A stretch of DNA of 64,000 bases from Eledone cirrhosa. Lineage: Eukaryota. The stretch is from assembly GCA_964016885.1 (NCBI GenBank), contig OZ024742.1:85808001-85872000 (forward strand). Reading direction: 5' to 3'. Below, one piece after another: positions 7,619-64,000 of the stretch. Position numbers and translations under genes: made by a program. The notes under the pieces are model-generated. The model ran no database searches. It was not told where the DNA came from and saw nothing but the letters and a program-made list of their open reading frames with translations. How positions within the stretch are numbered: position 1 is the stretch's first letter; each line of letters begins with the position of its first letter.

Positions 7619-10600
7619 TGTAACAAACAAAATATCTAGAATGTATCGTGTTGAAGTACTTGATAAATCCATATCTATTTCTAACAACTATTTTGGTGAG
7701 ATTGTTAGAGGTCCAGCTATGTTAATTCTTACACTTTACTTCGGGTCAATTAATTTTATTATTGGTCATATTCATTGAAATGTTATTATATGTTATACAA
7801 TTGTAGTTATAGGACTATGTATTTATCAATGTAACGTAGATATTCGTATTTACATATGTTGTTTAAATTTACGTCAAAATTTAAATGATGATTAGTGCTT
7901 ACGTTATAGGCAAGATTAATCTTAATGAATGCATTGCCTTTCCTAATACAATCAGTGATGCGAGAATTTGCATTGGTCAGTGGGATTAAACCTTGTAACC
8001 CTGACACACTCCGAATATATAAATTCTTTCTAGAATTGTATGCAATGTTTATCGGCTAATTAGATCATGTACATGAACCGAGACACTGGGAATCATGCAA
8101 ACATTGAAACGTATGTAAATCCATTTCCGTTTTCAAAGTGACTGTTCAAAATGTCCCATGGCTTTCTCGTCGGATATGCTATTAGTTGGAAATATGGAAA
8201 TATAGGCGTTTAGATGGTTACATCGTTTTGCTTTATTAAGTATATAGAAATTGTTAGATATACTAGCAGAAAAACCACACTTCGGTTGGTTTTCTGCTAG
8301 CATGTGTAGTGTGTATATTGATATTATACCCAGGTATATATGATGTAGATATGGTACATCAAATAAAATCGTAATTGACAATATATAATACATAGAAATT
8401 GACCGAAGCCTGCGTTACACTGTCTTATTTAATCAGTAACGTAATCTATGATACATTAAAAAAGAGATATTTATATATGAACTGCATTAGGAGAAAATTA
8501 GTATGTTTATTTAAGCTAAGGCCAACCGGAAGTGTTGACATTTCAGAAATTTTAAAGATGTGAATCTTTGAAGAAACAAAATATAATTAATCAATAGCCA
8601 CGAAATTTAGTAGATAAATTATGTAATATTCATTCATTATTTATTCAAAGTAATCCAAATTATTTTACTAATGGGATAACAAATTATAAACCGTACGCAA
8701 TCCCGCGTTCCTTACTTTATTATAGTTTAGATTTCGTTCTGTGCCTTTTGTTTGAATAAGGTTGTCTATATAAGACTTACGATGTCTAAACGCCGTTGTT
8801 CTTAATAGGGATCATGCATTTCTTAAAAAGTGAGTGATTAAATTTCCTCATTTTGTCAACGTGGACAATGTATATTTTATTCATACCTCAGTTGGTGAAG
8901 GAAAGCTTTGGACCTGTTTTGAAACGTATCGATTTGATTGAAGTCAAAACAACACTTATAATATTAATGTATTGTATATGTGACAGTGACTTATCCGTTT
9001 ATCATAATTTCATTTAAAATTAATTTCATTTACAACTGAATTATATTTCCTATAGATACATTTATAATATCAATTATTATCGTCTTTATTTAATTACGTG
9101 GTTTTCTTAATAAGTGGTACATTGACAGATTCGAGAGAAGATCGGATCGAAGGCTTTGGGGTATTCTTTCTTGCCACCATGCATTTTGAGTTCAAATCTT
9201 GTTGATTTCAAATATGCCTTTCATAATTTTGAGGTCCATAAAATTGTATCGGTGCAGTAATGGGGTCGATTCTCTCGAAGTATCAGGGATAAATTGGCTG
9301 TGGAATGGTTTGCAACATTTTCAAAATGCCCTAGATAAGCCGTATGTCATTATGGTGTCAAAACAAGAACATCTGGGGTAATATGTCATGTGTATAATCA
9401 TCGTAAATGTATTAGAAAGTTTGCGTGACGGCAAATAGATTTTGGGGTCGGGGTATTCAGGTCATGATTTCGATTCGCCACGGCTCCTTCTGTCATTGAC
9501 TAAAACATTTTATGTTACCTTGCTCCAGTCCACTTTTCTGGGGAAAATGTCATCTATCTACAATTCGGAAGGCATGGCGTGTCACGTTGTGTGTTGCGCC
9601 GAATCTCCTTAAGAACTACGTTAAGTATACACATTGCTTTGGAATGCTCAGCGACTTTCACGTTGATTTTTTATTTCTGAGGAGGCTGATCCGTAGATCT
9701 TTTCAACTTGTACAATCGTCATCGAAACTGTCGGAGTGCCACTTTGTATATCTGGTGGTTTTTAGTTTTTCCTGAATATATATTTCTGTATTTTTATATT
9801 TTCGCATTCACAAAAACTATGTTGAATTGTATTACAAAAAGATTCAGTATCGCAATTAATTACAGGAAATCATTTTATTTGAACATACTCCAGAAATATT
9901 ATCAATGTTTAAGAAATCGAGGTGTAAGGAAATCTCAGGTAGAGAGCAGATGGTTCTCAAAGAAGAAAGCCGCACTCAAGCAAGTGGCCAATACTTAAGT
10001 GTACAAAGATATAACACCATATCGTTTTATGAAATAAGTTAAGTAAGATTAAGTCCAAATAAATGTAAGAAATGGAGTAACTCTATGTTAGCCGGCATGT
10101 GTATGCGGGTATTGATGTAATGTCACATGCCTTGAGGATAGGACCTGACATTTCTGATCCTAAGTTCGCCTGTGAGATATCTGGCGAACCGTGTTGTCCA
10201 TTAGCAAGAAATAGCACAACATGGTCATTGTTCAAAAAGAATGAATTTCACCTTGTCGGATTGGATTTATCTAAGAAGTACGTAAACGTTGCACATGTGT
10301 GTTAAACGCACTGTCACTAGCATGTTAATTTCACGGGAAGACTGATCTGTAGATAAAATAAGTGAAACAGCCATCGCCATCACGTAAAGAGGTCCAACAC
10401 ATGTTTCTGTATATACCTAGATATGTGTGCGTGAGGATAAATATTCCGGTGCTATATTTATAAACCATTACTGCAGATAATTTTAAAATCAACGAAAGTT
10501 CATAAATGAATGACATATTTATTTATATTTCATGCGTTGAATGCTAGTTTAGTTTTAGAACAATGTATTGAAAGCCTTCTACTCTCAACTGACGAATTTC

Positions 10601-20998: not shown

Positions 20999-22314
<1,316 letters not shown>

Positions 22315-22454: not shown

Positions 22455-25400
22455 TATAAAGGACGTAAAATAAGAAAATATTTTTTTAAAAAAATTTAAA
22501 AAAAATTTTTTTCCTTACTTAAATTTTCACTCCAACTAATTAGTTTCTGCAATGGGATAAAGACAGTTACGTAATCCAACTGTCGAGAATTCATTGCGTC
22601 ATCAGGAAGTCTATTCTCAGTTAAGTCTCCAGGCAATGCGCGGACACTGGCGGCTCATATAAAAATAATAATAATTCGGTAGATCGAACAGCTTGCGAGG
22701 ACTGGATTCTATGTACCGAAATTCTCACTGCTTCAAGTCAAATGGCCGATTCTAAAGAATCAATCACGTGACACAGAGGCTAGTTAGAAGGAATGGGATG
22801 GTAAGATGACTGACGCCTACTAACACCCCAAAAAAAATTTTTTTTAGAAGTGGTTTTGACAAGTTTGCTCGACAAATCAGTGATTTGGAGATAAATATAG
22901 ATAATTTAATATATCAACTAACATAAGCGCACAGATGCACGCCCATGCCAGCAAATACACAGGTTATGTCATAGTACCTAGGTGGTTCAATGCAGGAGAA
23001 TGCAGAACAATAATATAAAGGACGTAAAATAAGAAAATATTTTTTTAAAAAAAATTTAAAAAAAATTTTTTTCCTTACTTAAATTTTCACTCCAACTAAT
23101 TAGTTTCTGCAATGGGATAAAGACAGTTACGTAATCCAACTGTCGAGAATTCATTGCGTCATCAGGAAGTCTATTCTCAGTTAAGTCTCCAGGCAATGCG
23201 CGGACACTGGCGGCTCATATAAAAATAATAATAATTCGGTAGATCGAACAGCTTGCGAGGACTGGATTCTATGTACCGAAATTCTCACTGCTTCAAGTCA
23301 AATGGCCGATTCTAAAGAATCAATCACGTGACACAGAGGCTAGTTAGAAGGAATGGGATGGTAAGATGACTGACGCCTACTAACACCCCAAAAAAAATTT
23401 TTTTTAGAAGTGGTTTTGACAAGTTTGCTCGACAAATCAGTGATTTGGAGATAAATATAGATAATTTAATATATCAACTAACATAAGCGCACAGATGCAC
23501 GCCCATGCCAGCAAATACACAGGTTATGTCATAGTACCTAGGTGGTTCAATGCAGGAGAATGCAGAACAATAATATAAAGGACGTAAAATAAGAAAATAT
23601 TTTTTTAAAAAAATTTAAAAAAAATTTTTTTCCTTACTTAAATTTTCACTCCAACTAATTAGTTTCTGCAATGGGATAAAGACAGTTACGTAATCCAACT
23701 GTCGAGAATTCATTGCGTCATCAGGAAGTCTATTCTCAGTTAAGTCTCCAGGCAATGCGCGGACACTGGCGGCTCATATAAAAATAATAATAATTCGGTA
23801 GATCTAACAGCTTGCGAGGACTGGATTCTATGTACCGAAATTCTCACTGCTTCAAGTCAAATGGCCGATTCTAAAGAATCAATCACGTGACACAGAGGCT
23901 AGTTAGAAGGAATGGGATGGTAAGATGACTGACGCCTACTAACACCCCAAAAAAAATTTTTTTTAGAAGTGGTTTTGACAAGTTTGCTCGACAAATCAGT
24001 GATTTGGAGATAAATATAGATAATTTAATATATCAACTAACATAAGCGCACAGATGCACGCCCATGCCAGCAAATACACAGGTTATGTCATAGTACCTAG
24101 GTGGTTCAATGCAGGAGAATGCAGAACAATAATATAAAGGACGTAAAATAAGAAAATATTTTTTTAAAAAAATTTAAAAAAAATTTTTTTCCTTACTTAA
24201 ATTTTCACTCCAACTAATTAGTTTCTGCAATGGGATAAAGACAGTTACGTAATCCAACTGTCGAGAATTCATTGCGTCATCAGGAAGTCTATTCTCAGTT
24301 AAGTCTCCAGGCAATGCGCGGACACTGGCGGCTCATATAAAAATAATAATAATTCGGTAGATCGAACAGCTTGCGAGGACTGGATTCTATGTACCGAAAT
24401 TCTCACTGCTTCAAGTCAAATGGCCGATTCTAAAGAATCAATCACGTGACACAGAGGCTAGTTAGAAGGAATGGGATGGTAAGATGACTGACGCCTACTA
24501 ACACCCCAAAAAAAATTTTTTTTAGAAGTGGTTTTGACAAGTTTGCTCGACAAATCAGTGATTTGGAGATAAATATAGATAATTTAATATATCAACTAAC
24601 ATAAGCGCACAGATGCACGCCCATGCCAGCAAATACACAGGTTATGTCATAGTACCTAGGTGGTTCAATGCAGGAGAATGCAGAACAATAATATAAAGGA
24701 CGTAAAATAAGAAAATATTTTTTTAAAAAAATTTAAAAAAAATTTTTTTCCTTACTTAAATTTTCACTCCAACTAATTAGTTTCTGCAATGGGATAAAGA
24801 CAGTTACGTAATCCAACTGTCGAGAATTCATTGCGTCATCAGGAAGTCTATTCTCAGTTAAGTCTCCAGGCAATGCGCGGACACTGGCGGCTCATATAAA
24901 AATAATAATAATTCGGTAGATCGAACAGCTTGCGAGGACTGGATTCTATGTACCGAAATTCTCACTGCTTCAAGTCAAATGGCCGATTCTAAAGAATCAA
25001 TCACGTGACACAGAGGCTAGTTAGAAGGAATGGGATGGTAAGATGACTGACGCCTACTAACACCCCAAAAAAAATTTTTTTTTTAGAAGTGGTTTTGACA
25101 AGTTTGCTCGACAAATCAGTGATTTGGAGATAAATATAGATAATTTAATATATCAACTAACATAAGCGCACAGATGCACGCCCATGCCAGCAAATACACA
25201 GGTTATGTCATAGTACCTAGGTGGTTCAATGCAGGAGAATGCAGAACAATAATATAAAGGACGTAAAATAAGAAAATATTTTTTTAAAAAAATTTAAAAA
25301 AAATTTTTTTCCTTACTTAAATTTTCACTCCAACTAATTAGTTTCTGCAATGGGATAAAGACAGTTACGTAATCCAACTGTCGAGAATTCATTGCGTCAT

Positions 25401-25842
25401 CAGGAAGTCTATTCTCAGTTAAGTCTCCAGGCAATGCGCGGACACTGGCGGCTCATATAAAAATAATAATAATTCGGTAGATCGAACAGCTTGCGAGGAC
25501 TGGATTCTATGTACCGAAATTCTCACTGCTTCAAGTCAAATGGCCGATTCTAAAGAATCAATCACGTGACACAGAGGCTAGTTAGAAGGAATGGGATGGT
25601 AAGATGACTGACGCCTACTAACACCCCAAAAAAAATTTTTTTTAGAAGTGGTTTTGACAAGTTTGCTCGACAAATCAGTGATTTGGAGATAAATATAGAT
25701 AATTTAATATATCAACTAACATAAGCGCACAGATGCACGCCCATGCCAGCAAATACACAGGTTATGTCATAGTACCTAGGTGGTTCAATGCAGGAGAATG
25801 CAGAACAATAATATAAAGGACGTAAAATAAGAAAATATTTTT
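22455..25842. repeat. Tandem array of 6 near-identical ~559-bp units plus a ~25-bp partial, flanked by (TA)n
   Basis: GGACGTAAAATAAG recurs at 22461, 23020, 23580, 24139, 24698, 25259 and 25818. The unit is homologous to, but diverged from, the 21111 palindrome unit. Confidence 0.97.
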
Positions 25843-25850
25843 ATATAGAG

Positions 25851-27690: not shown

Positions 27691-28319
27691 TTTTGTATCC
27701 ATAAGAAAATAATAGAATGCAACACATTTCCTCCACATATCCATCATCAGGGTTGTTTAAAGTGTATTTCAGCAAACAAATTCCTGCTGCTTTTCAAATA
27801 ATATTTTGATGCGTGATAACTCGTGAGAAAAAATTACTGTACTCGAAGCATTAGCTATTTCTTCGTATATTACTCAGATATATTGATATTTATTAGAACA
27901 TGGCTTGAGAAGTATTTCATTATTACACAAGAGCACAAGTTTATCATCAATGTTAATGAATCATTCTAGCAGAAAAGTATCACATTATTCATGAATCATT
28001 ATACGCAATGTCTCTATTTTGAATATTTTATAGCAGATACTTTTCATCATTAATGGTTTCTGAAGTGTTCTATTTCAGTATTATTTGATAACGAAGTTAT
28101 TCAAATAACATACCTGAAATTGGATTGATTATTTGTAAATTGTCATTGTATATTCAACTTAATATATCTTGCAACATATACGTTAGACATTTTTACGATT
28201 ATATATGGGGAAGGGAAAAAGAAGACTACAAAAATGTTCCACAGTAATTAAAAAGCCATATCAAATTATGCTTTTTTTCATTATTTTTCATCGATTTAGT
28301 CAGTATTGCTGCTACTAAA

Positions 28320-29899: not shown

Positions 29900-31500
29900 T
29901 ATCTGTTTGTGTTAATTGAGTGGTCAAGATTCAAAGGGGGATGCAAGCAAGAGGCAAATTCCATGGCAGTAGTAGGGTTGTAAAATAAATTCTATTATTG
30001 GAATATGGTTTTAAGGAGTGTGTGTGTATATATAGTTTGAGGGTTATTATATAACAATACACACATACTTGTGTGTGTGTTTCAGCCCTGTCTGTCACAG
30101 GTTCCTTTAGCAATACACATATGTGTGTGTTGGGGGAGGGGGTTAAGCCTGTCTCTCACAGTTCCCTTTGTGGTGGGAAATTAAATAAACATTTTTTTAA
30201 AAATTCAGAAAATTCTCAAACACTAAAAATTCCTAGAATTTAATTTTTGTTTATAATAAAAACAGAGCAGAGTAACAGTAGTGGCTCTCAAACAGGAAAC
30301 TTCTCGAAACAGTAATTTTGTCTCTCTCATTTTGTGGTGTGTGTGTGGAGTGGGGATGGGGGCTAATGGGGTGATTACATATTTAGTTTTGGATTAAGTT
30401 TGTTATTACAAAGTTTTTCCTTATTTATTCTTTGTTGGTGAATCGGGGAACATGTAACGGGGGAAGATTTTAAGTTGTGTAGAGTCATTCCTGCACAATC
30501 TGCAATGTGGCTACTTAAGGGGGCTTTCCTTGCGTTTACGTACAGCCGCCGCATGTGAATACATAGAACATATTCTCCGAGTTGCAAGTGAAGTTGTTTT
30601 TCACTTGAAAGTTTGGCCATCTTTAAACCTGAATTCATGTTCTTCAGTTAAGTATTGACATGTTCGACAGTTTGTTCTTCCGCATCTTGTTACCGTAAGG
30701 TTGGAGATAGGCTTCTGTATCTTTGATGTGAATAGGACGAAATGTTTGGAGTCCGTGGGTTTATAAAAGATGTATGTTTCTATTTTTGCCATCCATTTTT
30801 AGAATGTCTCTCATTCCATTGTGAATTGTAAATTTGAAAAGAGTGAGTGGATGCATGTCTTCCTGCCATAGTATGAAACACTCGTGTAGGTATCTCTTCC
30901 AATTCTTTTTGAGACGTGTAAGGAAAGAGTCTTCGAATAATAGAAGGAATTGGTTGTAGATTTGTTGTTCGTGGAATCCCATGACTAAGCTGTCGTATGT
31001 GGGAGCTATCTTTGTGTCCATTTCAGTCCCTGAGATGTGTCGGTATGCTGAGTCATGGAAAGTAAATAAATCATTTTTTAAGATAAATCGGAGTCCATCA
31101 ATAATGAAGTTTTTGTTGATGCGTGTCGGTATTTCATATTGGTGAGTTTCTAGCCAATACCGGATTGCTGTTATTCCATAGTTATAGGGTATGTTAGTGT
31201 AGAGGTTTACTACGTTAAAGGAGACAAGAGTAGGGTTTTCACTTATTGTTTTGGGTAGGTGGTTCAGCATATCAAGGTCATCTCGTATGTAGCTCTGTAT
31301 ATGTTTTGATGGAATTTTTAAGTTTTAGGAACTTGTTGAATTTTGAAGAAAATATATTTTTCTATTTCCCGGCACAAAGGGACCTGTGACAGACAGGCTG
31401 AAAAGCACCCACTCACACACCCCACCCACCCCACACACATGTGAGACGTGACAGACAGGCTGAGAAGAAAACATACACACACATGTGTGTATTGTTATAT
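29900..31500 (-). mobile_element. Degenerate 5'-truncated Neptune-like Penelope element with inverted 3'-UTR segment
   Basis: ORF pieces 30761-31270 (LVSFNVVNLYTNIP, WKRYLHECF), 30601-30792 (CGRTNCRTC) and 30375-30638 align with the 48038-50388 protein, with an internal deletion. 31325-31500 is a diverged inverted copy of ~30040-30235. Confidence 0.85.
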
Positions 31501-32264: not shown

Positions 32265-35200
32265 ATTAGAAATTGGAATAAATGCTCTGAAATAGCGATA
32301 TATATGTGAATATAGACATAGAATATTCGAAAATATTCTGTATGTTTATAATAAACATTTTGAAGACCTAATCGCTATAGAATAGAATACGTCACGTATT
32401 ACAATTAGATTCTCGATAAAAGCAAGGGAAGTAATCTACGCGTTTCATTCTTGTTAGAAATCATCAGGACTACATATCCAGTGCTTTTATCGAGAATGAC
32501 ACAGCTAGAGACTTATAGAATACTTAGCTGTGTACAGGAACTGGTTTGAAAGAGCGGTTGCCGGTCCGGCAGAAATTAGAAATTGGAATAAATGCTCTGA
32601 AATAGCGATATATATGTGAATATAGACATAGAATATTCGAAAATATTCTGTATGTTTATAATAAACATTTTGAAGACCTAATCGCTATAGAATAGAATAC
32701 GTCACGTATTACAATTAGATTCTCGATAAAAGCAAGGGAAGTAATCTACGCGTTTCATTCTTGTTAGAAATCATCAGGACTACATATCCAGTGCTTTTAT
32801 CGAGAATGACACAGCTAGAGACTTATAGAATACTTAGCTGTGTACAGGAACTGGTTTGAAAGAGCGGTTGCCGGTCCGGCAGAAATTAGAAATTGGAATA
32901 AATGCTCTGAAATAGCGATATATATGTGAATATAGACATAGAATATTCGAAAATATTCTGTATGTTTATAATAAACATTTTGAAGACCTAATCGCTATAG
33001 AATAGAATACGTCACGTATTACAATTAGATTCTCGATAAAAGCAAGGGAAGTAATCTACGCGTTTCATTCTTGTTAGAGATCATCAGGACTACATATCCA
33101 GTGCTTTTATCGAGAATGACACAGCTAGAGACTTATAGAATACTTAGCTGTGTACAGGAACTGGTTTGAAAGAGCGGTTGCCGGTCCGGCAGAAATTAGA
33201 AATTGGAATAAATGCTCTGAAATAGCGATATATATGTGAATATAGACATAGAATATTCGAAAATATTCTGTATGTTTATAATAAACATTTTGAAGACCTA
33301 ATCGCTATAGAATAGAATACGTCACGTATTACAATTAGATTCTCGATAAAAGCAAGGGAAGTAATCTACGCGTTTCATTCTTGTTAGAAATCATCAGGAC
33401 TACATATCCAGTGCTTTTATCGAGAATGACACAGCTAGAGACTTATAGAATACTTAGCTGTGTACAGGAACTGGTTTGAAAGAGCGGTTGCCGGTCCGGC
33501 AGAAATTAGAAATTGGAATAAATGCTCTGAAATAGCGATATATATGTGAATATAGACATAGAATATTCGAAAATATTCTGTATGTTTATAATAAACATTT
33601 TGAAGACCTAATCGCTATAGAATAGAATACGTCACGTATTACAATTAGATTCTCGATAAAAGCAAGGGAAGTAATCTACGCGTTTCATTCTTGTTAGAAA
33701 TCATCAGGACTACATATCCAGTGCTTTTATCGAGAATGACACAGCTAGAGACTTATAGAATACTTAGCTGTGTACAGGAACTGGTTTGAAAGAGCGGTTG
33801 CCGGTCCGGCAGAAATTAGAAATTGGAATAAATGCTCTGAAATAGCGATATATATGTGAATATAGACATAGAATATTCGAAAATATTCTGTATGTTTATA
33901 ATAAACATTTTGAAGACCTAATCGCTATAGAATAGAATACGTCACGTATTACAATTAGATTCTCGATAAAAGCAAGGGAAGTAATCTACGCGTTTCATTC
34001 TTGTTAGAAATCATCAGGACTACATATCCAGTGCTTTTATCGAGAATGACACAGCTAGAGACTTATAGAATACTTAGCTGTGTACAGGAACTGGTTTGAA
34101 AGAGCGGTTGCCGGTCCGGCAGAAATTAGAAATTGGAATAAATGCTCTGAAATAGCGATATATATGTGAATATAGACATAGAATATTCGAAAATATTCTG
34201 TATGTTTATAATAAACATTTTGAAGACCTAATCGCTATAGAATAGAATACGTCACGTATTACAATTAGATTCTCGATAAAAGCAAGGGAAGTAATCTACG
34301 CGTTTCATTCTTGTTAGAAATCATCAGGACTACATATCCAGTGCTTTTATCGAGAATGACACAGCTAGAGACTTATAGAATACTTAGCTGTGTACAGGAA
34401 CTGGTTTGAAAGAGCGGTTGCCGGTCCGGCAGAAATTAGAAATTGGAATAAATGCTCTGAAATAGCGATATATATGTGAATATAGACATAGAATATTCGA
34501 AAATATTCTGTATGTTTATAATAAACATTTTGAAGACCTAATCGCTATAGAATAGAATACGTCACGTATTACAATTAGATTCTCGATAAAAGCAAGGGAA
34601 GTAATCTACGCGTTTCATTCTTGTTAGAGATCATCAGGACTACATATCCAGTGCTTTTATCGAGAATGACACAGCTAGAGACTTATAGAATACTTAGCTG
34701 TGTACAGGAACTGGTTTGAAAGAGCGGTTGCCGGTCCGGCAGAAATTAGAAATTGGAATAAATGCTCTGAAATAGCGATATATATGTGAATATAGACATA
34801 GAATATTCGAAAATATTCTGTATGTTTATAATAAACATTTTGAAGACCTAATCGCTATAGAATAGAATACGTCACGTATTACAATTAGATTCTCGATAAA
34901 AGCAAGGGAAGTAATCTACGCGTTTCATTCTTGTTAGAAATCATCAGGACTACATATCCAGTGCTTTTATCGAGAATGACACAGCTAGAGACTTATAGAA
35001 TACTTAGCTGTGTACAGGAACTGGTTTGAAAGAGCGGTTGCCGGTCCGGCAGAAATTAGAAATTGGAATAAATGCTCTGAAATAGCGATATATATGTGAA
35101 TATAGACATAGAATATTCGAAAATATTCTGTATGTTTATAATAAACATTTTGAAGACCTAATCGCTATAGAATAGAATACGTCACGTATTACAATTAGAT

Positions 35201-35668
35201 TCTCGATAAAAGCAAGGGAAGTAATCTACGCGTTTCATTCTTGTTAGAAATCATCAGGACTACATATCCAGTGCTTTTATCGAGAATGACACAGCTAGAG
35301 ACTTATAGAATACTTAGCTGTGTACAGGAACTGGTTTGAAAGAGCGGTTGCCGGTCCGGCAGAAATTAGAAATTGGAATAAATGCTCTGAAATAGCGATA
35401 TATATGTGAATATAGACATAGAATATTCGAAAATATTCTGTATGTTTATAATAAACATTTTGAAGACCTAATCGCTATAGAATAGAATACGTCACGTATT
35501 ACAATTAGATTCTCGATAAAAGCAAGGGAAGTAATCTACGCGTTTCATTCTTGTTAGAAATCATCAGGACTACATATCCAGTGCTTTTATCGAGAATGAC
35601 ACAGCTAGAGACTTATAGAATACTTAGCTGTGTACAGGAACTGGTTTGAAAGAGCGGTTGCCGGTCCG
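32265..35668 (-). repeat. Tandem array of 11 x 310-bp hammerhead-containing units (retrozyme-like concatemer)
   Basis: AATTGGAATA recurs every 310 bp from 32271 to 35371. Copies look identical except for A>G at 33079 and 34629. (TA)n on the left. Confidence 0.97.
32409..32497 (-). ncRNA. Type I hammerhead ribozyme (copy 1 of 11; repeats every 310 bp to 35509-35597)
   Basis: Minus strand GUAGUC-CUGAUGA-U-UUCU(AACA)AGAA-U-GAAA-CGCG-UA/GAUUAC. Stem I is GUAGUC:GAUUAC, extended by a 16-bp helix (ATTCTCGATAAAAGCA:TGCTTTTATCGAGAAT). Stem III is the palindrome ACGCGU. Predicted cut between 32437 and 32436. Confidence 0.88.
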
Positions 35669-35784
35669 TTACTTCCCTTGCTTTTATCGAGAATCTAATT
35701 GTAATACGTGACGTATTCTATTCTATAGCGATTAGGTCTTCAAAATGTTTATTATAAACATACAGAATATTTTCGAATATTCTA

Positions 35785-35793
<9 letters not shown>
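35669..35793 (+). repeat. Inverted partial copy of the 310-bp unit terminating the array
   Basis: TTACTTCCCTTGCTTTTATCGAGAATC...TTCTATGTCTATA is the exact reverse complement of ~32310-32434, then runs into (TA)n. Confidence 0.95.
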
Positions 35794-47505: not shown

Positions 47506-47512
<7 letters not shown>

Positions 47513-50500
47513 TGGTAAACGGAATAGAAAATGCTGACAAATTGTTCACAGTTGAAAAATGGTTTAATTAGGAATAAAAGAGTATTAGTAATTGTATGGG
47601 TTAGTATTCAGTTGTGGTTTTAAGTTTTTAAGATCTTACCGGTTGCGCATTTCTAAATGCTTTTCAAAAATAATTTTGAGATAGAGTGTCCGTGTTGGTT
47701 GCTTTGATCTGATTAGTTTTGGGAATTCTACCTGTTTTTATGTTAAAAAAGTGGCTCCAGCGTTACTTTGGTGTTGCAAAAATTCTTGTGGTCAAAACAA
47801 TTTTGATTGGTCGGTAGAGGTCATGTGAATGTAAAAAATTATTTTGCGCCAAGACAGTTTTTATGTTAAATACAACCAACAACGTAAGCCACTTATAACA
47901 CCACAATACAACATGGCACAGAGAAACACACACCCATGCTCGCAGTACAGTAACACCCCATTCAATCTACAACCACCAACCCGAACCACATTTTACAACA
48001 ACAAGAAATATAACAAACACAGGAGACCACTTAACATTTGCAGACAACCCCTCTACCCCAACCATTTTTTAGACACAGCACACAGATACAGGCAAACAAA
48101 ATAACACAAGACAGGGAGGAGAAACCGATAGTAATAAAAATTATCAATCTTACTAGTGCAGAACCAACACCCAACCTTATCAACTTACTCTCCAAAGGTC
48201 TTAAATTCACACCGACCCCACTACGTCCTAACTACTATGAAATGAAGGAAGACATCACAGACTTCTGTAGAAAGTTACGACTTAGTGAACAACTATTCAA
48301 CCAGTACAATGAGGATGAATCATTAGCCAGAAATAGAAGCAATTACACCCCTTCAAAAGGTAGAAATAAAATCCTGGACGAATTCTGTGAACACATCACA
48401 AACTTCCCTTACCAACACTTGCACAGACAAAAACACAAGCCAAACCTCAACAAGAAAGAATGGGAAGAATTAAATAGATTGAAAACCGACAGAACCATTA
48501 AAATTAAAGAGACTGATAAAGGGGGTACAGTAGTCCTAATGGAGACAGAATTCTATATCAACTTAGCGCTCTCTACTTTGGAAAACGAAACATACTACGA
48601 ACAGGCTGAACACTACAATCAACAGAAAATTATGAGAAAAATAAAAACTCTAATCAACCAATACAAAGAAGGACTCACTAACAAGGAATTCAGCTTCATC
48701 ACAGACTTCACAAGTAAATACAGCCTCTTCTACGGTATCCCTAAAGTACATAAAAGCGAATTAATAAGTAAGGCATGCAAGGAAGCCACAGACATAGTCA
48801 TCAATGTCCCCTCACCCAATGATCTCAAATTAAGATCTATAATAGCAGGCCCTGCTTGCGAAACGCACCGTCTTAGCAACTTCATTGATACCCTTCTCAA
48901 ACCCTTCCTCAAACACATCAAAAGCTATATAAGGGACGACCTAGATATGCTCAATCACCTCCCTAATATGCCACTTTCTGAACAAACCCTACTAGTGACG
49001 TTCGATGTAGTCAATCTATACTCCAACATCCCCCACAACCTAGGAATAGAAGCTATCCAATTCTGGCTGGATAATTTCCACAATGAACTCCCACAACGCA
49101 TGAAAAAAAATTCGTGATAGAGGGACTCAAATTTTTCTTGGAGAACAATTACTTCGTTTTCAATAACAAACCCTACAGGCAGAAATCTGGGACCGCTATG
49201 GGAACGAAAACAGCCCCCACTTATGCCAACCTAGTCATGGGATACCTGGAAATCACCCTCTACACTAAAGTCCTAAACAAATTTGGAAACACCGTCCACT
49301 TACACATTGAAAGGAACTGGAAGCGATATCTAGATGACTGCTTCATCCTTTGGCCCGAAAACATCGAAAAACTTAAAGAAGTTCACACCCTTATAAATGG
49401 GATCAACACGAATATTAACTTCACGATGGAATACAGCCATCAACAACTTCCCTTCCTCGACATCCTCATTAAGATCCATAACAAAAAAATAGAAACAGAC
49501 ATATACTACAAGCCCACAGACTCCAAGCAATATATCCCCTTCAACTCTTGCCACACTAGACACGTTAAAATTAATATTCCCTACAACTTAGCCAAGAGAA
49601 TCTGTACTATAGTCTCCAATAAAAACATCTGCTACTTACGGCTACAAGAACTAAAGGACACACTCATAGGCAGGAACTACCCTGCATCACTAATTGACAA
49701 TGGAATCCAACGTGCCCTAAAACTCAGTTCCCAGGACCTTAGACACCCTAAAGTAAATCAACCGAAACTAAAAGCTCTTCCATACATCTCCACACACAAC
49801 CCTCTCAACAATGAGGCCTTTGACACCATCCTCCAGAACATCCTTGTGCTGAAAAAGGACCATAGAATGAACCAAATTCTACGAACACACGATATCATAA
49901 AGAGCAAAAGACAATCCAAGTCAATGAAAAACATCTTAACACATGCCAAAGTACTGCCAACCACAACAACGAAACCCACAGTAAAAAAATGCGATAGACC
50001 CAACTGTGGCATTTGCATCAACCTAATAGAGGGTTCGGAATTCTATTTCAAAGATGGACAACGTTTTATAGTAAAACACAATTTCACATGTGCATCGGAA
50101 AATCTAATATATGTATTAACTTGCTTAGGTTGTCGAGAACAATACATAGGCCAGACCAAACACAGCCCCCGCCAACGCATGACTGTCCATAGATCCCAAA
50201 TTAAAATACGGGAATACAGGAAAATACCACTGAGTGAACACATTGATACCTGTGCCGCCCAAAATCATCCCAAGTTTAGAATCTTTCCCCTCTACAAATT
50301 TAAAGATAATGCCACCCACACCCAGCGCATCAGCAAGGAATCTTACTTCATTAACAAATACGGACCCCGTCTAAACACTTCTCCCTAAGAGGAACCCACA
50401 ACAGACACACGTTAACATTCATACCTACATCAGCACACATCTCCACCCACATATAAACACAATGACATACGTAAACACACATGCTCTATGGTGCAACACA

Positions 50501-50516
50501 GAAAAATATATGTGTA

Positions 50517-50570
<54 letters not shown>

Positions 50571-51150
50571 ATATATGTATGTGTATATATATGTAGTGAA
50601 TATCATTTCACACCTTTTATTGTTAAGATTTTTGATGTTCTATTAAGAGAACCGATTTTACTGAAAAAATCGAATAATGTACACCATTTTACCAGGGGGG
50701 AAAGATACTGTACTGCGAGCATGGGTGTGTGTTTCTCTGTGCCATGTTGTATTGTGGTGTTATAAGTGGCTTACGTTGTTGGTTGTATTTAACATAAAAA
50801 CTGTCTTGGCGCAAAATAATTTTTTACATTCACATGACCTCTACCGACCAATCAAAATTGTTTTGACCACAAGAATTTTTGCAACACCAAAGTAACGCTG
50901 GAGCCACTTTTTTAACATAAAAACAGGTAGAATTCCCAAAACTAATCAGATCAGAGCAAACAACACGGACACTCTATCTCAAAATTATTTTTGAAAAGCA
51001 TTTAGAAATGCGCAACCGGTAAAAACTTAAAAACTTAAAACCACAACTGAATACTAACCCATACAATCACTAATACTCTTTTATTCCTAATTAAACCATT
51101 TTTCAACTGTGAACAATTTATCAGCATTTTCTATTCCGTTTACCAATATA
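47506..51150 (+). mobile_element. Neptune-like Penelope-like retroelement with ~445-bp inverted pLTR segment
   Basis: 47506-47952 and 50706-51150 are near-identical inverted repeats; the left end abuts (TA)n and the right ends in TATATA. RT-GIY-YIG ORF between them. Confidence 0.92.
48038..50388 (+). CDS. PLE reverse transcriptase + GIY-YIG endonuclease (one frameshift at A8, 49103-49110; probably 5'-truncated)
   Basis: LLSKGLKFTP, ETDKGG, FYGIPKVHK, LVTFDVVNLYSNIP, GTAMG, WKRYLDDCF, PFLD, CDRPNCGIC linker, NLIYVLTCLGCREQYIGQT, RMTVH. Confidence 0.92.
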
Positions 51151-52793: not shown

Positions 52794-54473
52794 TTAAGTT
52801 AGCCATGTCAGCTCATTTCTCTCAGCCCGGTTGTTAAGTGGGGGTCTGAGGTTCTTAATAACAAGTGCTTCCTTTATCCTTAAGGATCCGATGCTGCGTT
52901 CAGTCGCTAGGACTGTGACCAAGGGTCTACCCTGTGGGTTTCCGCATTTAAGGATGTGTTTACGGAAGGAAGATGCGTTGGTGTTGATATGTTCCTTGAT
53001 ACGAACATGCAGGGGTCGGATGGTGCTACCTATGTAAAACTTGTTACATTTATCGCATTGAATCTTATATACGACATAGGTGCGTAGGCAATCTGCCCCC
53101 CGTATCGGACAGTTGCTGAGGGAACACGTCCCATCTGACTCGTCGGGTTTGTTGGAGAGGCATCTTCGCAGCGAAGGTCCTGTGTGAGCCAAATGTATGT
53201 CAAGTACCTCCGTCCGTATGGCCCTGCGGATGGCGTTCGTGGTATATTCACTCAGGTGGGGGATTTTAAAGAAGCACCTGCTTTTAGTTAAGTTTCTAGT
53301 GGGAGTCTGTCTATTGGGTCTGGGGTCTCTAATTCCGTTAATCAGTCGCTTGGGATATCCATTAGACCTGAGTAGATTACGGAATTGCGTGGTATGGGTG
53401 AGACCACCCATCGGGTCGCTGCATCTGTTAGTGATCCGTGTCAGTTCATTTAGGACATAGCCTCTCTTAGCGTTGTTGGGGAGGGCTGAGTTGTAAAGCC
53501 CAAATAAGTCCTTGCACGCTGCTTTGCGGTAGAAGGTGGTGTTTATGTCTCCTTCTTCCGAGATGTTGATACGGAAGTCGAGGAGGGCGAGTGACCCGTC
53601 TTCTCCTGGGTGTTCGATGGTGAAATCGACGTGATGGTCAGTATCGTTGAAGATTTGGTGAATTTCATTCGCCATCTCCCGGGAAGAAGTAAGTATCAGG
53701 ATGTCATCAACGTATCTGGAGTAGAAGGCGACGGCGTTGGGTTGGCAGGTATTGAGTGCCTTGCGTTCCAGGTGGTCCATGTACGAGATCGCAAGTATGC
53801 CGGACAGACGAGAGCCCATAGGTAGCCCAGAGATTTGTTTGTACGTGTGGCCGAGGAAATTGAAGAGTGCATTATCCACAACGAAGGAGAGGAGTTGGTG
53901 GATGTCCGTGTGTGTGAGTCCGAAGCAGTGTAAGTTAGATGCTCGGACTCGTTCGGTCAACACGTCGACGGCTGGGGATGCTTGTACGGAGGTATAAAGG
54001 GCGACCACATCAAGACTGAAGGCATAACCGTTGTCCTTTCTGGTGTTGGGCGCCAGATGGTGTAGTCGCTCCAAGACCTCCTTTGAGCTGCAGACGTGGG
54101 CTGGTAGTGTGTGTAGAATAGGTTTCAGTAGTGTGAAGAGCAGCCACGATATTTTGTAGAGTGGGCCCTCCACGCTAGAGACAATGGGCCTGATTTTCAA
54201 ATCGGGTCCTTGTTTATGTGTTTTAACCAGGTGGTAGAAGGTGGGTAGTTTGCTGTTTCGAGTCATTATGTTGTTTTTTACCTTCTTTGGCAGTTTTCGT
54301 TGGACACAGATGTTAGTCCATATGGTGTTAATGCCTTCCTCGATTAGAGTCGAGGAGGTCCCTGTGACTTTCGAGTAGAGGCTGTGGTCGTTAAGATGTT
54401 GGAGAGCTAAGTTGTTGTAGGTCTCTCTCGAGATGACACAGAATTCTTTCCCCTTGTCAGAGGGAAGGTACAC
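52794..54473 (-). CDS. PLE reverse transcriptase + GIY-YIG endonuclease (559-aa open segment; N-terminus frameshifted)
   Basis: PSDKG, FYHLVKTHK, RPIVS, FSLDVVALYTSV, GLPMGS, YSRYVDDIL, VVYKIQCDKCNKFYIGST, RIKEH, KEALVI...LN. Confidence 0.92.
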   Translation of the reverse strand: MYLPSDKGKEFCVISRETYNNLALQHLNDHSLYSKVTGTSSTLIEEGINTIWTNICVQRKLPKKVKNNIMTRNSKLPTFYHLVKTHKQGPDLKIRPIVSSVEGPLYKISWLLFTLLKPILHTLPAHVCSSKEVLERLHHLAPNTRKDNGYAFSLDVVALYTSVQASPAVDVLTERVRASNLHCFGLTHTDIHQLLSFVVDNALFNFLGHTYKQISGLPMGSRLSGILAISYMDHLERKALNTCQPNAVAFYSRYVDDILILTSSREMANEIHQIFNDTDHHVDFTIEHPGEDGSLALLDFRINISEEGDINTTFYRKAACKDLFGLYNSALPNNAKRGYVLNELTRITNRCSDPMGGLTHTTQFRNLLRSNGYPKRLINGIRDPRPNRQTPTRNLTKSRCFFKIPHLSEYTTNAIRRAIRTEVLDIHLAHTGPSLRRCLSNKPDESDGTCSLSNCPIRGADCLRTYVVYKIQCDKCNKFYIGSTIRPLHVRIKEHINTNASSFRKHILKCGNPQGRPLVTVLATERSIGSLRIKEALVIKNLRPPLNNRAERNELTWLT

Positions 54474-54959
54474 AAGGTTCCTGGATCTTAGGTTGGTGAG
54501 AGTATTAAATTGTGCATTGGTGAGGTTGCGTTTATTGTGTGTGTGTGTGTGTGTTGGGAAAGGATGTTAGAGATAGAATGTTTCAACCTGAGTAGTTTAG
54601 TGTCAAGTTCGTGGTTGGTGGGTGGGGGTGGAGTGGGTTGTCGAGGTGGTACGTGGGGAGTGCGGGGTGGGTTGTGGGGTTGTAATCGATCTCGGTGTTG
54701 TTTTGGATGGCGGTTAGCCATTTCAGTTGATATGCTGTCCGACAGAAGTTGGTTTCGATGTCGAGTTTCAGTCTATCATCGAGACGCTGTGTAATGATGA
54801 ACTCGGGTCCGAGGCGCAGAATTTCGAGTTCGTCGTTGGTGAGGGTACCGGTTAGGTATATATATATTAAAGAGTTAAACAAGGTTCAATGAATACACCA
54901 AAGAATGAGTTTTACAATTGATTGGAAGCACTGAACAGTAATAAGGTTTTCCAGAGTTA

Positions 54960-61085: not shown

Positions 61086-64000
61086 TTTCATTTATTAGCC
61101 ACAAGGGCCGACATGTAGATGACAATACAAAGACAGGGACAGTGGGGGTTTACAATTAGGTCAAGTAAAAGTGCACAATGGCAAGACTAATTTAACTATG
61201 AAGATATAAAAATATAAAATAAACTATGCATAAATATAATAAAATAAATTCCTCGATAGGGGGTGGACGACCCTGAGGTGACTCAAGTACCCCACCAATC
61301 CTGAACCACCCTGCGCTTCTAGGGCACCCAGGGAGAGCACCCCTCTCCTCAAGTTAGCTAGCCTATAGGCGCATGGTCAGAGTAGGCCCATTCACACGAG
61401 CCATTCTCGCCACATCCATCCACCTTCTAGCAAATATACTGGGGGGCAGCACTTCTCTCTCCAACCTCACCTTCCTTTCCAGGTGAAACTTGAAGAAGTT
61501 GATGAGTGATTGGCCGAAGAGAAATAGTCTGTCTTCAGTCCTTTTAACCTGGTCCACCATATAACCTCTTTCGCAACTGCCACAAGACAGAGGAAAATTG
61601 CCTGCTCTTCCTGACCTCAGGAAGGCGGCGGGTCGATCTTCACTATGGACTCGGCCGATAGCCGGATTCGTTCCACACGCGACAGTAGCTGTTCGACATA
61701 ACTCCACAATTTAGTAATGCACGGACATTGAACAAGAGTGCGTGCAGAACGGTTTCGTCGTTCTGTGCGCATCTTGGGCAGGTCCGTCTGACAGCAATTC
61801 CGTGCCTGTAGAGTTTATCCCGAACCGGCAGTGCCCCCCGGTAGCATTGCCAAGCGAGGGATTTCTGGAAATTGTCCATCGTCCCCGGCTGAAAACCTCA
61901 GGTACAGACTGGTCAGTTTGACTTCGTCGAGGCCCAAAGCTTCTCCGAGTGCGTCGTCGCACTTGCCCACCACTAATCCTCTATAGAACTCTAGAGTGGA
62001 AGTTGCACTGATCGCATTTCCCACTTGGTAGAGGGCAGTGAATGCCTGGCAACATTCCAAGTGCCAGTCACCCAGTCTCTGTCTCTTCTTGACCCAGTAC
62101 TGCAGCTCAGTCAAAGAAATGGGCTGCGGAAAGACCCGTCTGATAAACGGCGACCACACTTGTTCACCGTTGAGGCAGAATATCTGTAGATGTCGCAGCC
62201 TCAACGCATGTCTGCGCATCATTAGCCACAGCATGCCCAGCCTTCCGCGTAGAGCGTGCTTACCAACGGAACTTGTCCCCTCACAAGAATTTGAAGAGGA
62301 GCCATTCCAACTTGACGAGGCGCGGACGACGGCAAGGCACGACGATCAGGTGGTAGTAGATGGCGGACCCGATGTACGTTTCGCCACCTCCGAGCGACCT
62401 TTCAGTGATAGCTTCCTCCCAGCCCATTCTGGCGTGAGACTGGCAACTCTGCTCGTTACCTCGTCCCAATAATTTTCCACCTGGAGGTCTGGTCCAAACC
62501 AAACCCCGATTACTTTACCGGTCCTTCCGTCCAGCGCCCCAAAACGCTATTGGACGGCATGGGCTTGCCTCTCCAGGTTCCGAGCTGCAAGCCCACCGAC
62601 TTTTCCGGGTTAAGTTTAGCTCCTGTCAACCTTTCATATTCCTTCAATAAGGTACCAATCACCTCGATTTATGAGGTGTTTGACACCATCACGGTGATGT
62701 CGTCCGCATAAGCCGACCCCGCCTTTCCCCGTCCCGTTACGAGCGGGATGCCCTGCAAGTAAAGGCTCGAGAGTCAATACGTACAGAAGCGAGGAGAGAG
62801 GGCACCCTTGACGGACCGATTGGGAGAGCCGAAAAGGTTCCGAGATGTGGCCATTGACTTTCACCACCGAGCGTGTGCCGCTGTGCATTGCAGCGATCCA
62901 ACTTCTAAAGACAGGGCCGAAGCCAGCTGCTTTGAGGACAAACTCCAGATACCGATGGACGACCCTATCGAATGCTTTCGGTTGATCTAAATTGATCAGT
63001 GCCCCACCGAAGCCAGGTTTACACCCTACCCTCTCTATGATGTATCGCATGAGGTGGAGATTGTCGTTTATAGACCTCGCTGGGATTGCGCAAGTTTGCG
63101 CCTCCCCGACCAAATCCTCGACGACAAGCGACAATCTCTTTGCTAGCACGTTGGCTAAAATCTTAAACTCTGTGTTGAGCAGAGTTATGGGCCTGAAGTT
63201 GTCTAATGTATCCCTCTTGTTCTCGTCTTTCCTTATCAGCGTCGCCACTCCCCTGTTCACAGAACTGGGAATACTCCCATCTGCTCCAGTTGCAGTAGAG
63301 TGCTTCGAGGAGTTCGGAGAACAAGTCTGGCATATTTACGTAAAGCTCGTAGGGCAGGCCATCCAAACCGGGTGACTTGCGTCTGATGCAGCCGACAAGG
63401 GCGTTCTGAATTTAGGCTGAAGTAATCGGCCTTTCACAGAGCTCAGCTTCGAGCGTCGAGATACGCGGCAAGCCGTCAAGGTAGGGACTGAAATCCGCTA
63501 CTGTCTCTGACTCGCCACTCTCCACAAAACACCGAGCAAAGTGCTGGCGAAAGACCTCACACATGCGCTTGGAATCGCTTATCTCGTGTCCGTCTCGGTT
63601 CACCAAAGACCTAATTGTGGTTTTATTACCACGCTGTGCCTCCGCCACGCGGACCCATTGAACAGCTCTGGTTCCCTCGTTTCTCAGCGCACGCGCCTTA
63701 GCTCTGACAATGCAACCTTCGTGTTTCGCATTGAAGAAATTGTCTAATGCCATTCTCGCCGCTAGCACGACAGTTGCAATGCCACTACAAATAGCCTCGC
63801 CTAACTTATCTACCAGCTCCCCCTCCTTTCTATTTTTCTCTAACGCTAGTTCTTTGCTGAACTCTATCGAAGTTACTCTAATCTGTCTTTTGAGAGCCCC
63901 CCCCACCATCTGTTGTTGATGATCCCCCATGTCAACTTTTGCTTAACTAAATTGTTGACTCGGTCCCTGTAGACTTTACGTGCCGGAAATGACAGGTTCA
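61086..64000 (-). mobile_element. Tx1/L1-clade LINE, ORF2 disrupted by frameshifts; continues beyond the window
   Basis: DGLPYELY, NFRPITLLNTEFKILA, LINLDQPKAFDRV, VRQGCPLS, AYADD (~62700-62714), LAWQCYRGALPV...CPRC...ETVLH (zf-RVT). Stop at 61363; AATAAA just before the (ATT)n tail. Confidence 0.92.

Follow-up and report, generated by a model that had tools for sequence, protein, structure and literature searches.

The window analysed here is a stretch of 64,000 nt of Eledone cirrhosa DNA (contig OZ024742.1). At 22455..25842 it contains a tandem array, which had been described in a preliminary description as a TA-flanked concatemer of 6 x ~559 bp; six full units of 559, 560, 559, 559, 561 and 559 bp were indeed found from 22456 on, followed by 33 bp of a seventh, with (TA)n on either side. 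The units differ in two homopolymer runs and in one G>T in unit 3 (position 23805), as reported there. CUGAUGA occurs once per unit on the minus strand, the first copy at 22605-22599 where it had been placed, and no reading frame of 130 codons was revealed in the array. The diverged relative beside it (80% identity) retains CUGAUGA-CGUAAU-GAAU, again in agreement. The main features are as follows.

22455..25842, minus strand: one-armed insertion of the proposed retrozyme, holding 6 hammerhead motifs and, between predicted cuts, 5 full monomers of 559-561 nt; the minus strand has the RNA sense
22455..22475, minus strand: end A, the fixed 3' end about 80 nt past the predicted cut, joined to (TA)n
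22765..22773, minus strand: TGTCACGTG, found in 12/12 representative monomers
22888..22900, minus strand: end B site, about 202 nt past the predicted cut, internal here but forming the outer limit of the second arm where a copy has two
25835..25845, minus strand: 5'-truncated end of the array, near unit position 46 and adjoining (TA)n
21099..22260: two-armed insertion of the 80%-identical subfamily, unit 533-540 bp, with end B near 21110, inversion near 21748 and end A at 22260
21358 (minus strand) and 22124 (plus strand): C3 of the hammerheads of this two-armed relative
47512..51150, plus strand: Neptune-type Penelope-like element with RT, Cys linker and C-terminal GIY-YIG, frameshifted here, a candidate helper

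The element TGTCACGTG at 22765-22773 may be an internal promoter element, and we take it to resemble an E-box.

Each array unit carries a complete type I hammerhead motif, which is predicted from its sequence to cut its own RNA. On the minus strand the order is CUGAUGA-C, GCAAUG, CAUUGC 40 nt on, A, GAAA, the palindrome ACUAAUUAGU, U and GGAGU, with the parts of the first copy located as below.

22599..22605, minus strand: core 5' half, C3-U4-G5-A6-U7-G8-A9
23165, 23724, 24283, 24842 and 25403, minus strand: C3 of the further core copies
22598..22598, minus strand: extra base after A9, C here and A in one subfamily
22549..22597, minus strand: stem II domain, GCAAUG (22597-22592) with CAUUGC (22554-22549), from covariation and folding
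22584-22562, minus strand: apical hairpin of stem II, above an internal loop
22548..22548, minus strand: additional A separating C11.1 from G12, a fixed feature of the family
22534..22547, minus strand: core 3' half G12-A13-A14, palindromic stem III ACUAAUUAGU (22544-22535) and H17 = U
between 22534 and 22533, minus strand: predicted cut, GUU/GGAG
22606..22610, minus strand: stem I 5' strand ACUUC, with partner GGAGU at 22533-22529
22614..22618, minus strand: GAGAA, which can pair with UUCUC of the stem II internal loop (possible pseudoknot) or lengthen stem I

The two core halves are thus CUGANGA (22605-22599, C3 at 22605) and GAAA (22547-22544, G12 at 22547), the second belonging to GAAAC-UAAUUAG-UU, 51 nt past CUGAUGA. 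Stem II closes on G10.1-C11.1 (G-C in 113/116 motifs), stem III has A15.1-U16.1 (ACU/AGU) and the triplet GUU, and H17 is U in 116/116 motifs. Stem I is open and 5 bp long, and is paired in 77-85 of 85 motifs per position. By its sequence, stem II covers some 50 nt, roughly five times the usual arm length, which is enough to defeat Rfam and a published search with a 7-17-nt spacer. Rfam covariance models gave no hammerhead match for one unit (E up to 10) or for the window (E up to 5).

In the preliminary description no canonical hammerhead could be folded at this place; a type I hammerhead with all the consensus core bases can be drawn. Stem II, which had been called minimal, consists of 6 bp, the internal loop and, as its tip, the hairpin that had been described as a neighbour. 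The supposed replacement of GAAA by GAAU does not hold, since GAAU is a variable loop (GAAU in 42/85 distinct motifs, GAUU in 11, GCUU in 8, others in the rest) and an intact GAAAC lies at 22547-22543. Of the proposal of a conserved structured RNA and possible variant ribozyme, the structure, the relation to ribozymes and the CUGAUGA strand stood, and the GAAU core and minimal stem II fell. A type III hammerhead with GAGAAU/AUUCUC as stem III was also drawn and rejected, as it leaves a 2-bp stem I and GAAU varies.

The array differs from the textbook hammerhead in the A that stands between 11.1 and G12. It was present in 116/116 motifs, a sample partly selected for A, and in about 97% genome-wide. 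When the extra A and the extra C were freed in the search pattern, the count of matches rose merely from 8,670 to 8,918 (with slightly different spacer ranges), so no large subfamily lacks the extra A. This A could be read either as a base inserted beside G12 or as a C.A mismatch forming the first pair of stem II. Since G12 does not directly follow 11.1, the hammerhead is a variant and not a textbook type I member. With this extra A the core deviates from the consensus, and cutting may be reduced or lost. At the foot of stem II a U-U mismatch has been described (available part of PMC3088659), and such a mismatch makes cutting weaker; the natural core variants which that part names include neither a C.A or A.A apposition nor a base inserted between 11.1 and G12. 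A literature search found no paper on an extra nucleotide at G12 or a G10.1/C11.1 mismatch; Lunse et al. 2017, which lay outside the search, may describe such variants.

The pattern core-C, 30-60 nt and A-GAAAC-palindrome gave 8,670 exact matches in the 3.0-Gb genome (1,796 contigs), and its reversed control gave 0. With the palindrome left free 8,746 matches were obtained, and no other palindrome family appeared; the stem III palindrome is intact including the loop in 111/116 motifs. A search with the unit itself gave at least 234 matches over many contigs, with about 99% identity among the matches listed. About seven subfamilies were distinguished, with units of 521-571 bp. Pieces of several of them were also present in four other sequencing runs of other coded organisms, from which no host range is claimed.

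In order to keep the test of core conservation from circularity, a flank-only pattern was searched, which gave 6,409 matches and a control of 0. Among the 100 matches listed out of these 6,409, examined by eye, the sole subfamily-level change of the consensus core was CUGACGA at the free position N7 (10 rows), and about 20 other rows held scattered single core changes, as is expected from decay following insertion.

Pairing in stem II is kept by changes on both sides. Motifs without the expected 5' flank were left out (32/117), giving 85 motifs; for the covariation alignment 1/46 motifs with a deleted hairpin was left out, giving 45, as was the first of two insertions in L173. Pair 10.2-11.2 is U-A in 21, A-U in 13, C-G in 7 and G-C in 4, and unpaired in 0/45, while another stem II pair is G-C in 26 and U-A in 15. 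In the apical hairpin 5/7 pairs change on both sides, which bears out the covariation that had been proposed for it; its coordinates were also right in the array (22562-22584) and in the relative (21315-21337), whose G-U pair is possible on the CUGAUGA strand only. Overall 93.7% of cells pair in the 45 motifs, versus 38-49% in slid controls. These figures count sequences and not independent events, with about seven subfamilies behind them. Stem I also shifts in length on both strands together, CUCC or CUUC going with GGAG and CUUUC with GGAAG.

The stem I side may form 5 bp with stem II (GAGAA/UUCUC), a pairing that would recall the pseudoknot-stabilised hammerheads in the available part of PMC3088659. 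It is paired in 95%, with a both-side change in 1/45 sequences, and the rival extension of stem I by the GAGAA bases is paired in 92% with no both-side change (45 motifs). Copies at two loci (L095 and L009) have a stem II insert that is short (41 nt) or nearly missing (32 nt). Both keep the lower stem as well as the loop with UUCUC, which suggests that the hairpin at the tip may not be needed.

In folding predictions the stem II domain alone reached a z of -3.4, with 0/200 shuffles as good. The array's own full motif folded no better than shuffles (z -0.8), while the motif of the 80%-identical relative gave z -3.3, and stem I was formed at >= 0.6 in only 2/6 predicted circular monomers. Predicted circles folded better on the hammerhead strand in 5/5 subfamilies (z -3.0 to -6.1, 12 shuffles each). 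The palindrome ACUAAUUAGU was estimated at -9.0 kcal/mol as a self-duplex versus +1.5 as a hairpin. As it would form a stable duplex but no stable hairpin, it fits the dimer cutting known, from the available parts of the sources, for newt and axolotl hammerheads (PMC7229834) and proposed for those of Penelope elements (PMC4209133). A fold in which the palindrome locks CUGAU was also considered and rejected; it is locally 2.5 kcal/mol better than the monomer fold, but exceeded 0.5 in just 2/6 circles.

The insertions end in a regular manner. In the young family the RNA-sense 3' ends fall at two sites, A at +80 and B at +202 from the cut, and in older families at about +57 to +70 and +170 to +190, respectively. 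The 3' ends adjoining (TA)n were plainly at end A in 43/51 cases judged by eye, most others being within a few bases. Among 39 young loci 25 were two-armed, head to head, and 14 one-armed, including the array at 22455..25842; all 25 two-armed loci (25/25) had one end A and one end B. Of 77 loci picked by the pattern 27 were A+B and 1 was A+A, and the others were one-armed, short-armed or broken. The arrays are short (0-10 full units) and dispersed over many contigs.

Eleven rare variants were present in every covering unit of their own locus, at four loci across both arms, and 103 in a single unit. That variants run throughout a locus indicates that one template served both arms, which both a circle and a uniform linear multimer would fit. 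The 5' ends were weakly enriched past the cut (44 vs 25, p 0.015; young family alone 16 vs 10, p 0.16), a count that allows for arms starting just before the cut and includes, among 65 older-family rows, a few AT-rich double matches; a 5' end exactly at the predicted cut was seen in 1/99.

Of 82 copies chosen for a change at the junction, none ended at the cut: 0/41 of those with a changed first base, a set drawn with a pattern one N longer than intended, and 0/41 of those with a changed second base. The first base past the predicted cut, when changed, was T in 22/41 copies versus 7/41 at the next base (p 0.001; L247-L326). This T excess could come either from slippage beside UU or from a scar of RT crossing a ligation junction. 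No scar of A>G editing was found (15 vs 11 T>C, p 0.10).

We consider it likely that the array is a young, protein-free non-LTR retrozyme which carries a variant of the type I hammerhead and was inserted into (TA)n by a Penelope-type enzyme borrowed from elsewhere, and its identity as a non-LTR retrozyme, taken alone, is held with more confidence than this whole mechanism. The family has the marks of a non-LTR retrozyme, its units being non-coding, tandem and dispersed, with a single type I hammerhead in each. It also has those of mobilisation by Penelope, namely an inverted arm, a tail on one side, 3' ends at fixed sites and a microsatellite as target, with A+B in 25/25. In the proposed route the array would be transcribed on the minus strand, and the hammerhead would cut after GUU, probably as a dimer through two paired palindromic stems III, freeing units of 520-570 nt which may be ligated into circles. 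A dimer of a Penelope RT/GIY-YIG enzyme would then cut both (TA)n strands, and cDNA would start at two places within the RNA, some 80 and 202 nt beyond the cut. Each RT would run over as many as ten or so units of a single template before the cDNAs are end-joined; failure of one arm would leave a one-armed array such as 22455..25842.

The candidate helper in the window belongs to a Neptune family (L111-L140) with many near-identical copies and intact 784-aa frames. This family has the two-end (TA)n pattern as in the retrozyme (12 and 14 of 27), with 3' ends about 40 nt apart, and CUGANGA was found in 1/27 of its 3' regions. No hammerhead of the array's kind was found at the 30 GIY-YIG loci examined. 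Among 156 loci, some overlapping, 8 had a Penelope-like match, none of them joined to the unit, and at no locus was the unit linked with a coding frame. As for a terminus shared with an autonomous partner, a weak AT-rich likeness to the Neptune ends was seen, Hydra and Naiad families standing outside this comparison.

Several other elements were observed around these. A stretch of 35 bp, all TA, separates a two-armed copy from a Neptune copy truncated at its 5' end (L059:353-2350); the two have a target in common and are not fused. In the window, a second Penelope-like ORF (RT, GIY-YIG) occurs at 52794-54566 (minus strand), a LINE-like RT at 62634-63942 (minus strand), and a fragment resembling a decayed Penelope RT, without Pfam match, at 30761-31324 (minus strand). 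An array of 11 x 310 bp in (TA)n, with a short inverted arm, occupies 32265-35789; it carries a compact type I hammerhead on the minus strand with stem III palindrome ACGCGU, which Rfam misses too. A single CUGAUGA is found at 27750 (minus strand), and its surroundings resemble by eye the published 3' end of Naiad_Ovul.

More tentatively, and with clearly less than even confidence, the family may represent a new active architecture, in which a two-tier stem II of 50 nt docks through a Watson-Crick pseudoknot and tolerates or needs the extra A next to the general base G12. It would drive RNA circles, each copied twice by the hammerhead-less Neptune, the ribozyme then being the parasite's and not the helper's.

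Among the alternatives, a Penelope route with a slow or silent hammerhead survives best, as an unlikely but serious one. Here the fold would be a signal for binding a protein or positioning the RT, and the template an uncut linear multimer with no circle. It would accommodate the extra A at the core and the lack of sharp 5' ends at the cut, and insertion by the anole Penelope protein in vitro was unaffected by hammerhead mutants in the available part of PMC11167929; a homogeneous parent array would also give variants in all units, 38 of many loci having been sampled. However, conservation tracks catalysis, with N7 alone changing between subfamilies, the triplet remains GUU and the dimer palindrome is fixed. 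Spread at the DNA level, by a satellite or a Helitron-like rolling-circle element carrying a hammerhead by chance, is very improbable: the near identity of the tandem units would suit it, but the arrays are short and scattered, the head-to-head arms have A+B ends in 25/25 with variable 5' ends, and G-U pairs favour one strand. Hardly credible is the first suggestion of a compact ribozyme in which GAAU replaces GAAA and stem II is minimal. In its favour, GAGAAU and AUUCUC are able to pair (95% of cells); against it, GAAU is found in just 42/85 motifs, and a complete and fixed GAAAC, together with stems I and III, follows after 51 nt.

The proposed retrozyme shares many features with metazoan non-LTR retrozymes, as the available parts of PMC7229834 and 10.64898/2026.07.22.740005 describe them: tandem units that are non-coding and hold a single type I hammerhead, a low GC content, copy numbers in the thousands, a well-paired predicted circle, and Penelope-like elements in the genome. 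Its unit is 521-571 bp, versus about 170-400 in PMC7229834 and 51-972 in 10.64898/2026.07.22.740005. The stem II of about 50 nt and the extra A before G12 are features of the array's family, in which it differs from the retrozymes of those parts. No sequence tie to a coding element was found here, whereas 24/57 Xenopus families match known TEs, and of the 22 TEs so matched 21 are Penelope-like; of the dimers predicted for Xenopus retrozymes, only 1/9 was seen to cut in vitro (Li et al., 10.64898/2026.07.22.740005, available part).

With the hammerheads of Penelope-like elements, in the available part of PMC4209133, it has in common an extra base between 9 and 10.1, G10.1-C11.1, a helix I of 4-5 bp, a long helix II and a palindromic helix III. 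There helix II has 6-8 bp with a small loop, while here its 6 bp are followed by an internal loop and another hairpin. The stem III found here is a 10-nt palindrome, and that part describes no additional base ahead of G12. Thus, apart from stem II length and the extra A, the peculiarities of the motif (extra C after A9, G-C pair, short stem I, palindrome) are already known in Penelope hammerheads. In Naiad, by contrast, the GAAA half of the 'HHR_half_core' (Craig et al. 2021, available part) precedes CUGAUGA in Naiad_Ovul, as judged by eye in 1 of 8 cases.

The insertions likewise follow the Penelope signature in the available parts of PMC8557442 and PMC11167929, with an inverted 5'-truncated arm, a tail at one end and a (TA)n or AT-rich target. 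In PMC11167929, so far as available, the Penelope tail arises in vitro from two internal RT starts 3' of the hammerhead, both DNA strands being cut and extended, and two start sites downstream of the hammerhead are also indicated here. The tail is about 122 nt in the young family, versus 30-40 in the Penelope-like elements of these two sources. Unlike those elements, the array's family has no ORF, and its arms are multimers of one unit.

Literature searches found no paper on a long stem II motif of this kind in a retrotransposon, and for octopus or cephalopod with hammerhead or retrozyme found Craig et al. 2021 alone. The hammerhead search of Craig et al. used a 7-17-nt spacer (PMC8557442, available part). 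Since hammerhead searches limit stem II to a few bp, about 9,000 motifs in the Eledone genome are invisible to them and to Rfam, and similar hammerheads with a long stem II may be hidden in other animals. A fixed extra base beside G12 would extend the bounds known for the ribozyme core that has been studied most. The strict rule of one end A and one end B gives genomic support to the two-site start seen in vitro with a Penelope enzyme, and the family offers a short natural template for the copying of retrozyme circles that has long been proposed.
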